From the NCBI GenBank assembly GCA_965203325.1, contig OZ241875.1:2048001-2112000 (forward strand): 64,000 nucleotides of DNA, given 5' to 3'. Made by a program: the position numbers and the translations under genes. Positions within the stretch are counted from its first letter, which is position 1. Every line of letters begins with the position of its first letter. The notes under the pieces were generated by a model. The model ran no database searches, was not told the origin of the DNA, and was given only the letters and a program-made list of their open reading frames with translations. Below, in pieces: positions 53,033 to 53,762 of the stretch. This stretch comes from a bacterium (GTDB lineage: Bacteria; UBA8248).

Positions 53033-53656
53033 TCACCAGTTGGACGGCTTGGTGATGTTGGTGCCCGGAATCGGGGACGGAAGCTGATTCTTTCGCAGCG
53101 CTCTCTTTTGAATTCGGCGGGAGAAATCGGCATGGGCCATTAACTCTCGAGACGGATGACTCGCTCCGGGTGTTACCAGTCCAATCCATTTTCTTTTGTG
53201 CTTTTTCACAAGACGCATGCCCTCGGTGATATCGCTGTCGTTCGTAACTACTACCGCACAGTCGTAGTCATCCAGCCATGCATCGTTCAAGAGATGTACG
53301 GCGAGATTGACATCCGATCCCTTTTCCTCGGTCCTGACGACATTCACCAGCCTTCGCCTGTTGCCGGTATCAGCAAGCGGTGCTTGAATCTTATGCGTCA
53401 GAAAATGCCCGAAATAAACTTCGACCTCCGGGCAATGATGTCGCAATGCGCGCAGATAGGCATTTTGGCGCCGTGGCTCGGATGGGTCGTTCGGGCGCGC
53501 CGAAACGCGCGCCGTGAAGTATTTGATTTTGAGGATATCGTGGTGCGGCTTCAATACGTCACGGAACAGACCAGAGAGATCGAGCCATTTGAACGGCGTT
53601 TGCTTCAGCGAGCGGTAGTAGAGGTTGAATCCATCGACGTAGATATAAGTCCGCAT
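53033..53656 (-). CDS. NYN-domain (LabA/DUF88, PIN-like) nuclease
   Basis: YVDGFNLYY, EEKGSDVNLA.HLL.DA and VVTNDSD acidic motifs. Confidence 0.88.
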   Translation of the reverse strand: MRTYIYVDGFNLYYRSLKQTPFKWLDLSGLFRDVLKPHHDILKIKYFTARVSARPNDPSEPRRQNAYLRALRHHCPEVEVYFGHFLTHKIQAPLADTGNRRRLVNVVRTEEKGSDVNLAVHLLNDAWLDDYDCAVVVTNDSDITEGMRLVKKHKRKWIGLVTPGASHPSRELMAHADFSRRIQKRALRKNQLPSPIPGTNITKPSNW

Positions 53657-53665
53657 GTCTTACCT

Positions 53666-53762
53666 AAAAAAAGCAGGGCCTCATGAGAGGCCCCGCACCC
53701 AGCGGTCGAAGCCACTGGGGGAGTAGTGAAAAAACTATGCCACTGTTCCGAGTCTTCGTCAA
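53666..53762 (-). ncRNA. Candidate structured small RNA with own promoter and terminator (copy 1), directly upstream of the NYN gene
   Basis: TTGACG-17-CATAGT, then CCCAGTGG-CTTCGA-CCGCTGGG and GCGGGGCCTC-TCAT-GAGGCCCTGC-TTTTTTT, ending 9 nt before the NYN ATG. Confidence 0.6.

Follow-up and report, generated by a model that had tools for sequence, protein, structure and literature searches.

We propose that a large family of NYN-domain proteins acts together with a small structured RNA, i.e., that the RNA is probably a type III/AbiF-like antitoxin of an NYN-fold RNase and that phages carry mimics of it. The proposal is based on a stretch of 64,000 nt from a bacterial genome (in the following the window) and on the comparison of its RNA-NYN locus with related cellular and viral loci. 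An earlier sequence-only reading of the window had suggested that the RNA inhibits the NYN nuclease, and our comparative results support this interpretation at the sequence level. Whether we are dealing with an undescribed but widespread class of immune modules, made of an RNA antitoxin and an NYN/PIN-fold RNase, whose RNA was captured repeatedly by phages as an anti-defence gene, we consider evenly balanced.

The features of the locus are listed in Table 1. RNA copy 1 consists of a C-rich single-stranded 5' end, the hairpin P1, a linker of 1 nt, the hairpin P2, which forms the terminator stem, and a U7 tract; its 5' end is a prediction from the promoter position. Nine nt separate the T7 from the ATG of the NYN gene at 53656. 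The unit is single, i.e., not an array, and P2 with its U-tract makes a good terminator. Folding z-scores are -7.2 for copy 1 and -5.0 for a second copy in the window. With all coordinates read directly, the minus-strand order of promoter, hairpins, U-tract and NYN gene given by the sequence-only reading is confirmed. No gathering-level match to Rfam 15 is found in the window region (the E-value matches are all far below cut-off), and the abiF RNA (RF03085) does not match the window RNA, neither at gathering score nor when E values of up to 10 are allowed. Neighbouring genes encode speB, a membrane protein, an EEP nuclease, HigA, Fic and a HAD hydrolase; according to profile matches within the window, no Hma system is found among them.

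Table 1. Features of the RNA-NYN locus and of the second RNA copy in the window
Feature	Position	Strand	Basis and remarks
Sigma70-type promoter of RNA copy 1	53734..53762	-	promoter scan; TTGACG (53762-53757), 17-nt spacer, extended -10 CATAGT (53739-53734)
RNA copy 1, ~62 nt	53666..53728	-	folding; 66.3 bits with model R1; P1 53719-53698, P2 53696-53673, T7 53672-53666
NYN-domain predicted RNase, 207 aa, PADLOC HEC-09 family	53033..53656	-	profile matches, fold, residues
Duplicated speB 3' end closing the putative RNA-NYN insertion	52941..52991	-	88% identical to 53779-53829
Promoter-like site of RNA copy 2	51145..51173	-	read from sequence; TTGACG (51173-51168), 17 nt, CATCCT
RNA copy 2, orphan	51077..51142	-	71.3 bits with R1; folding; P1 51132-51111, P2 51109-51085, then T4
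71-aa ORF and 206-aa Fic gene	50160..50992	-	site of a former second NYN gene
NYN 3'-end relic, 27 nt	50086..50112	-	81% identical to 53031-53057; in-frame stop

With regard to the protein, NYN (PF01936) is the sole Pfam match (36 bits, cut-off 24.2, E 1.3e-8), and residues 2-207 align to positions 3-202 of the 203 of the PADLOC model HEC-09 (E 9.4e-43). A PDB sequence search returned no match. The AlphaFold2 model (pLDDT 89.6) resembles VPA0982 (2qip; Z 16.4, rmsd 2.7, 156 aligned) and the NYN domain of MARF1 (Z 15.5), both far above the next-ranked structures. Neither Pfam nor fold comparison, whose clear matches are all NYN, identifies the protein as ToxN, CptN, TenpN or Abi_2/HEPN. D8, E111, D115, D140 and D142 are invariant in all 146 intact RNA-linked NYN genes, and the protein is predicted to be a metal-dependent RNase with acidic active-site residues. 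The family is very large (7,927 relatives among 8,000 candidates scored), with homologues in 450 plasmid records as well as in prophages. Among relatives of the window's genome the gene is patchy (20/41 genomes, several with fragments only). Around 31 NYN loci the neighbours are mostly housekeeping genes; about 9 of these loci have a defence or mobile-element neighbour, a count made without a control set. No conserved partner protein gene is found among the 67 neighbours from these loci.

To characterize the RNA, we collected 243 loci, of which 235 cover the NYN N-terminus and 195 are non-redundant with at least 85 nt upstream; one locus (L146) had no upstream sequence and was dropped, such that 194 NYN loci were scored. 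In a MAFFT alignment of 72 well-behaved units, picked by typical length and high descriptor score, 93.4% of the cells are paired and two-sided changes occur in 18 of 19 pairs. None of 500 shuffles scores as high, slid controls reach 38-57% pairing, and RNAalifold agrees. The consensus shows the C-rich single-stranded 5' end, P1 with mostly a UUCG loop, a one-base linker, P2 and the U-tract, where P2 begins with two G-C pairs followed by a bulged U. Two nested short-loop hairpins account for the covariation, no pseudoknot is predicted, and one alternative pairing was rejected.

The family was used to build the covariance model R1, for which we consider 30 bits or more a match. Counts by two earlier two-hairpin descriptors are excluded, since one was too permissive and mishandled reversed loci and the other rewarded the bulge. 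R1 matches 163 of the 194 NYN loci, spread over many phyla. The link to NYN homologues that the sequence-only reading requires is strong where the proteins share at least 40% identity (RNA beside 162/175 loci; 91/104 without training sequences). Of the 13 misses in this range, 10 have visible variant units; no RNA is recognisable at the other three, of which one is a pseudogene, one has a disrupted gene and one lies on a contig that stops just after NYN. Below 40% identity R1 is weak (1/19 loci), and a looser leader-hairpin-terminator layout is observed there by folding only. The promoter pattern TTG...17...xAxxxT precedes 115/162 RNA units compared to 11.8% of shuffles. Rfam searches of 20 NYN loci and of 20 viral loci with an orphan RNA gave no gathering-level match, all E-value matches being far below cut-off. 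The protein family is already catalogued (HEC-09), the RNA is uncatalogued in Rfam 15. RNA-seq was uninformative: one metatranscriptome was available, as contigs only, with a word share of 0.04 and relatives under 95% identity.

The NYN genes of the plasmid loci L380-L387 (26-38% identity) comprise some that are annotated as nicB/HspA as well as an Xre/MbcA/ParS-type fusion. Their leaders have a similar C-rich start, a longer P1 and an A-rich terminator, and probably represent a divergent branch of the NYN-linked RNA.

The most immediate alternative to an antitoxin is a cis-acting autoregulatory leader, i.e., a non-toxic NYN protein that adjusts its level by binding or cleaving the 5' leader or terminator of its own mRNA, with no separate role of the RNA. 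RNase E and RNase III set their own levels via their leaders. The dominating layout of RNA, terminator and ATG, where the start codon mostly follows P2 at a distance of 5-25 nt, is in accordance with this, as is the lack of defence by HEC-09 in the published test described in the main text of 10.1101/2024.01.29.577857. On the other hand, the RNA lies outside the 5' end of the NYN mRNA in seven lineages. It is convergent, i.e., downstream on the opposite strand and directed toward the NYN stop codon, in mycobacterial prophages (L209, L210, L211, L302) and in a Paenarthrobacter plasmid (L376), divergent and directed away from NYN in L208, L322, L326 and L330, and located 3' of NYN on the same strand in L339. 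A clear -35/-10 pair is visible by eye in five of these seven lineages. Judging from these arrangements, the RNA appears to be a gene and not only a leader. Phage copies without NYN, discussed below, also keep the fold. For the only obvious antiterminator, formed by CCCC:GGGG pairing, we find no two-sided changes and 71% pairing, which is no better than shuffles. The attenuator or leader reading is weakened because of the non-leader layouts, the missing antiterminator covariation and the NYN-less phage copies, and we consider the autoregulatory leader unlikely.

RNA units can also be repeated. Plasmids of 4.6 kb from E. coli, whose NYN is 35% identical, carry several P1-type hairpin units before the terminator (4 in L373, 5 in L378/L379), and two RNA copies are present in L188, L096 and L372. 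Such tandem repeats are found in a minority and most loci are single-unit. In L059 (1560-2510) three promoter-RNA-NYN starts follow each other, of which the first two lead into decayed NYN 5' parts.

RNA copy 2 of the window is 83% identical to copy 1 over 60 nt and has the bulged U of the family consensus at the P2 base. As the sequence-only reading had noted, it keeps TTGACG, the 17-nt spacing and both stems including an A-U to G-C change in P1; as a promoter, its upstream site is doubtful, since the -10 box is weak and the promoter scan does not call it. The two copies are the only BLAST matches in the 4.39-Mb genome, and R1 adds a single weak match of 24 bits (G000:C1:851069-851155, minus strand). 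A generic dispersed repeat is therefore rejected by the genome-wide BLAST and covariance-model searches. The ORF-Fic order next to copy 2 is the same in the relatives G012, G017 and G020, and G012 keeps an ITKPANW relic at the place matching the NYN 3' relic of the window. Copy 2 is thus the relic of a second NYN cassette and not a free-standing repeat. The Fic module itself (50160-50992) shows weak matches to mobile mystery protein B and SoFic. The intact cassette lies between two copies of the final 51 nt of speB, a duplication that is seen in full or in part in 7/7 genus loci shown and that may mark insertion by recombination at the speB 3' end.

Loss of NYN with retention of the RNA is a recurrent pattern. 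In the window's genus, the RNA is kept together with an NYN stub of 12-20 codons or an internal deletion with differing breakpoints in G003, G005, G007 (twice), G011, G019 and G022. A genome-wide NYN search gives no match in G003 and G007 and only the stub in G005. We also started from the RNA and searched three samples of 151 genomes, scoring 34 candidates per genome, which resulted in 8, 27 and 5 positive genomes, seeds included. Among the 54 non-seed RNA matches, we examined the 41 with distinct loci. In 16 of them NYN is intact and no more than 1.5 kb away, in 10 it is broken, 1 locus runs into the contig end, and NYN is absent from 14. RNA retention after NYN loss is partly built into an RNA-first search, and frameshifts in MAGs can mimic pseudogenes. 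Such a pattern is expected if the protein is costly and could not be maintained without the RNA.

We further screened viral sequences. Three narrow pattern scans of IMG/VR provided 28, 7 and 15 loci, including four repeats of earlier records in the third scan; a single-sequence viral scan gave no match. At 30 bits or more, 40 viral records remain, with NYN alongside the RNA in 3 of them. The other 37 records, many of them fragments, hold 26 distinct RNAs. No PF01936 gene is found anywhere in these 37 records (0/26 and 0/11; positive controls 3/3 and 1/1), which include 9 records that are at least 90% complete. A separate, unfitted alignment of 27 NYN-less viral copies is paired in 92.7% with covariation in 14/19 pairs, values that are partly shaped by the selection, in which some stem bases were prescribed by the scan patterns and paired sequences were preferred by the score filter. 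The RNAs of L289 and L300 differ in about one base in 50 from cellular NYN-linked RNAs (98% identical). The complete RNA-NYN module is viral as well, i.e., it is present in 33 of 57 viral NYN loci.

Viral orphans are often located next to head genes or tRNAs. The RNA directly follows the head scaffold gene in L300 and is located after the major head gene in L297 and after the endolysin in L289. In L276 it is flanked by scaffold and tRNA-Trp on one side and the major head gene on the other, and in L295 and L275 it lies near portal or terminase genes. A non-coding region of L281 (1495-2372, minus strand) combines two tRNAs with four P2 modules that have different 5' hairpins; the same region holds other unexplained structured stretches. 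In L294, L301 and L363 (~1482-1560, plus strand) the RNA is part of ORFs of more than 1,000 codons, where it encodes an EVST-GAG-like stretch in a common register. Compared to NYN-linked RNAs, viral orphans have weaker U-tracts (4.2 vs. 5.4 T of 8) and rarely an own promoter (5/26 vs. 115/162), and thus the fold is apparently more important in viruses than termination. We conclude that the NYN-less viral RNAs look like decoys against host defence, judged by fold and context. Some of them (L358, L368 and L370, next to an integrase or in a comparable setting) may instead be remnants of decayed cassettes.

The same data bear on another reading, in which the RNA has no specific link to NYN and is a portable element for termination, stabilisation or processing that phages would use to punctuate late transcripts. 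P2 with its U-tract terminates well, several phage copies are located just after late-gene stop codons, and NYN is absent at 14 of the 41 cellular RNA-first loci as well as from the 37 viral records. Nevertheless, the remaining 27 cellular copies adjoin NYN sequence and the U-tract is often missing in phage copies. Termination requires neither P1 nor the 5' C run nor the bulged U, and three copies reside inside long ORFs, where L301 and L363 differ by a compensatory C-G/A-U change in P2 of which one side is synonymous. We thus regard a portable terminator as very unlikely.

From these observations we infer a two-part module that would serve as toxin-antitoxin or abortive infection system. A constitutive promoter would produce abundant RNA of about 60 nt that mostly stops at its own terminator, with read-through providing a small amount of NYN mRNA. 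The RNA would bind the NYN RNase in trans via its C-rich 5' end, the stacked P1/P2 helices and the bulged U, and keep the otherwise toxic enzyme inactive. When host transcription stops, e.g., by phage infection, or when the element is lost, the RNA would decay and free the RNase. Phages would have captured the RNA as a decoy and express it as part of their late or tRNA transcripts. In view of the negative HEC-09 test and the mostly housekeeping neighbourhoods, the module may be mainly an addiction element.

Two other modes of action of the RNA were considered. The RNA could be an activating cofactor, scaffold or guide of a working RNP nuclease that phage copies retune or exploit. Such an RNP would also fit the near-obligate linkage, the conservation of unpaired bases and the arrays in which hairpins vary between repeats (L281), and AbiF RNA-toxin pairs are cited as Cas13 ancestors in the text of PMC12373285. 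In contrast, P1 and P2 are fully paired and short-looped and thus leave no variable single strand that would resemble a spacer; furthermore, the part that is lost is NYN and not the RNA, and it is hard to explain why lytic phages should keep the activator of a host nuclease. Altogether, we find a cofactor role quite improbable. We give even less credence to a type I-like mechanism, i.e., the C-rich 5' end pairing with the NYN ribosome-binding site or coding sequence to block translation. Many NYN ribosome sites are indeed G-rich, and the C-rich end is paired with them in 29 of 156 read-through folds. However, cognate pairing reaches -4.67 kcal/mol compared to -4.96 for permuted pairs, with 196/200 permutations as strong, and the window's own pairing reaches -2.9. 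The longest complement between RNA and CDS is 7.45 nt for cognate and 7.29 nt for permuted pairs. Anti-SD or antisense pairing is rejected given that there is no cognate-specific complementarity to the NYN mRNA.

We thus return to the RNA antitoxin and its relation to known systems. In AbiF with its RNA (RF03085; e.g., AbiFCd-RCd22 of C. difficile), as described in the text of PMC12373285, the promoter is likewise followed by a stem-loop ncRNA and a Rho-independent terminator, with an RNase gene that is reached by read-through, and the stem-loop motifs are single or repeated as for the NYN RNA. According to the same text, AbiF RNA acts in cis and in trans and RCd22 RNA binds AbiF. Here, the toxin is NYN/PIN-like instead of Abi_2/HEPN, RF03085 does not match, the terminator stem itself bears conserved features, and the RNA gene can be inverted or downstream. 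ToxIN, CptIN and TenpIN, as presented in the text of PMC5086642, share the order of RNA, terminator and endoribonuclease, the occurrence on plasmids, prophages and chromosomes, and a variable repeat number, the latter as in some NYN plasmid loci. They differ in the toxin fold, and the NYN RNA is usually one unit with two nested hairpins predicted rather than a pseudoknot. The NYN module would work like type III and AbiF systems but is a member of neither, because toxin family and RNA motif differ. If the proposal is true, RNase toxins inhibited by an RNA have arisen independently for a third time, after ToxN and AbiF, and RNA-antitoxin systems extend to the PIN-like superfamily.

For the viral copies, the pseudo-ToxI of phiTE is a precedent of a phage copy of a host RNA antitoxin without toxin, which arose, as reported in PMC3475682, in laboratory escape mutants of one phage. 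In contrast, the 26 distinct copies of the NYN RNA stem from environmental viral records and are candidate mimics. If this holds, RNA decoys would occur at scale in nature, i.e., in capsid operons, in tRNA clusters and inside very large phage ORFs, and the NYN-less phage copies would provide a ready-made set of anti-defence RNAs.

By profile, the protein belongs to the family HEC-09, for which the main text of Payne et al. (10.1101/2024.01.29.577857) names three MARF1-like aspartates. There, HEC-09 is described as a single gene found embedded in Hma defence loci. The one member that was cloned, together with its putative promoter region (native upstream sequence of about 150 bp where possible), did not protect against any of the E. 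coli phages in the test and was not among the constructs named toxic; 'ncRNA' and 'non-coding' have no occurrence in this main text. An intact antitoxin or termination could explain why the construct was not named toxic, and the RNA partner may explain the inactivity of HEC-09 in this single-host test. The PF01936 domain and fold are also common to the NYN.COG1432/LabA-like proteins, whose function is listed as unknown in the 2017 survey PMC5499597; a term search of its text gave no link to RNA antitoxins or type III systems. Within the full texts searched, with motif-catalogue supplements outside the scope, we found no description of an NYN-linked RNA, an RNA-NYN pairing or phage copies, and 'NYN' is absent from the main texts of 10.64898/2026.09.22.753630, PMC5737381, PMC8040213 and PMC10690425. 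With the proposed module, a very large uncharacterised nuclease family gains a testable function and its missing RNA partner. The main predictions are testable in a laboratory strain, because small E. coli plasmids carry the repeat-array version.

Finally, the window shows further features around the locus. An intact HigA antitoxin (TIGR02607; 51222-51690, minus strand) is preceded by a decayed toxin relic with in-frame stops, which is presumably HigB-like. This site repeats the pattern of a lost toxin and a kept antitoxin. The interval from speB to the HAD hydrolase looks like a toxin-antitoxin hot spot. Upstream of speB, there is a polyamine operon of speD, pyruvoyl arginine decarboxylase and speE (54638-56432, minus strand). 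Far from the locus, positions 5325-5544 (plus strand) match the domains D1-D4 of group II introns (RF02005, 154.7 bits).
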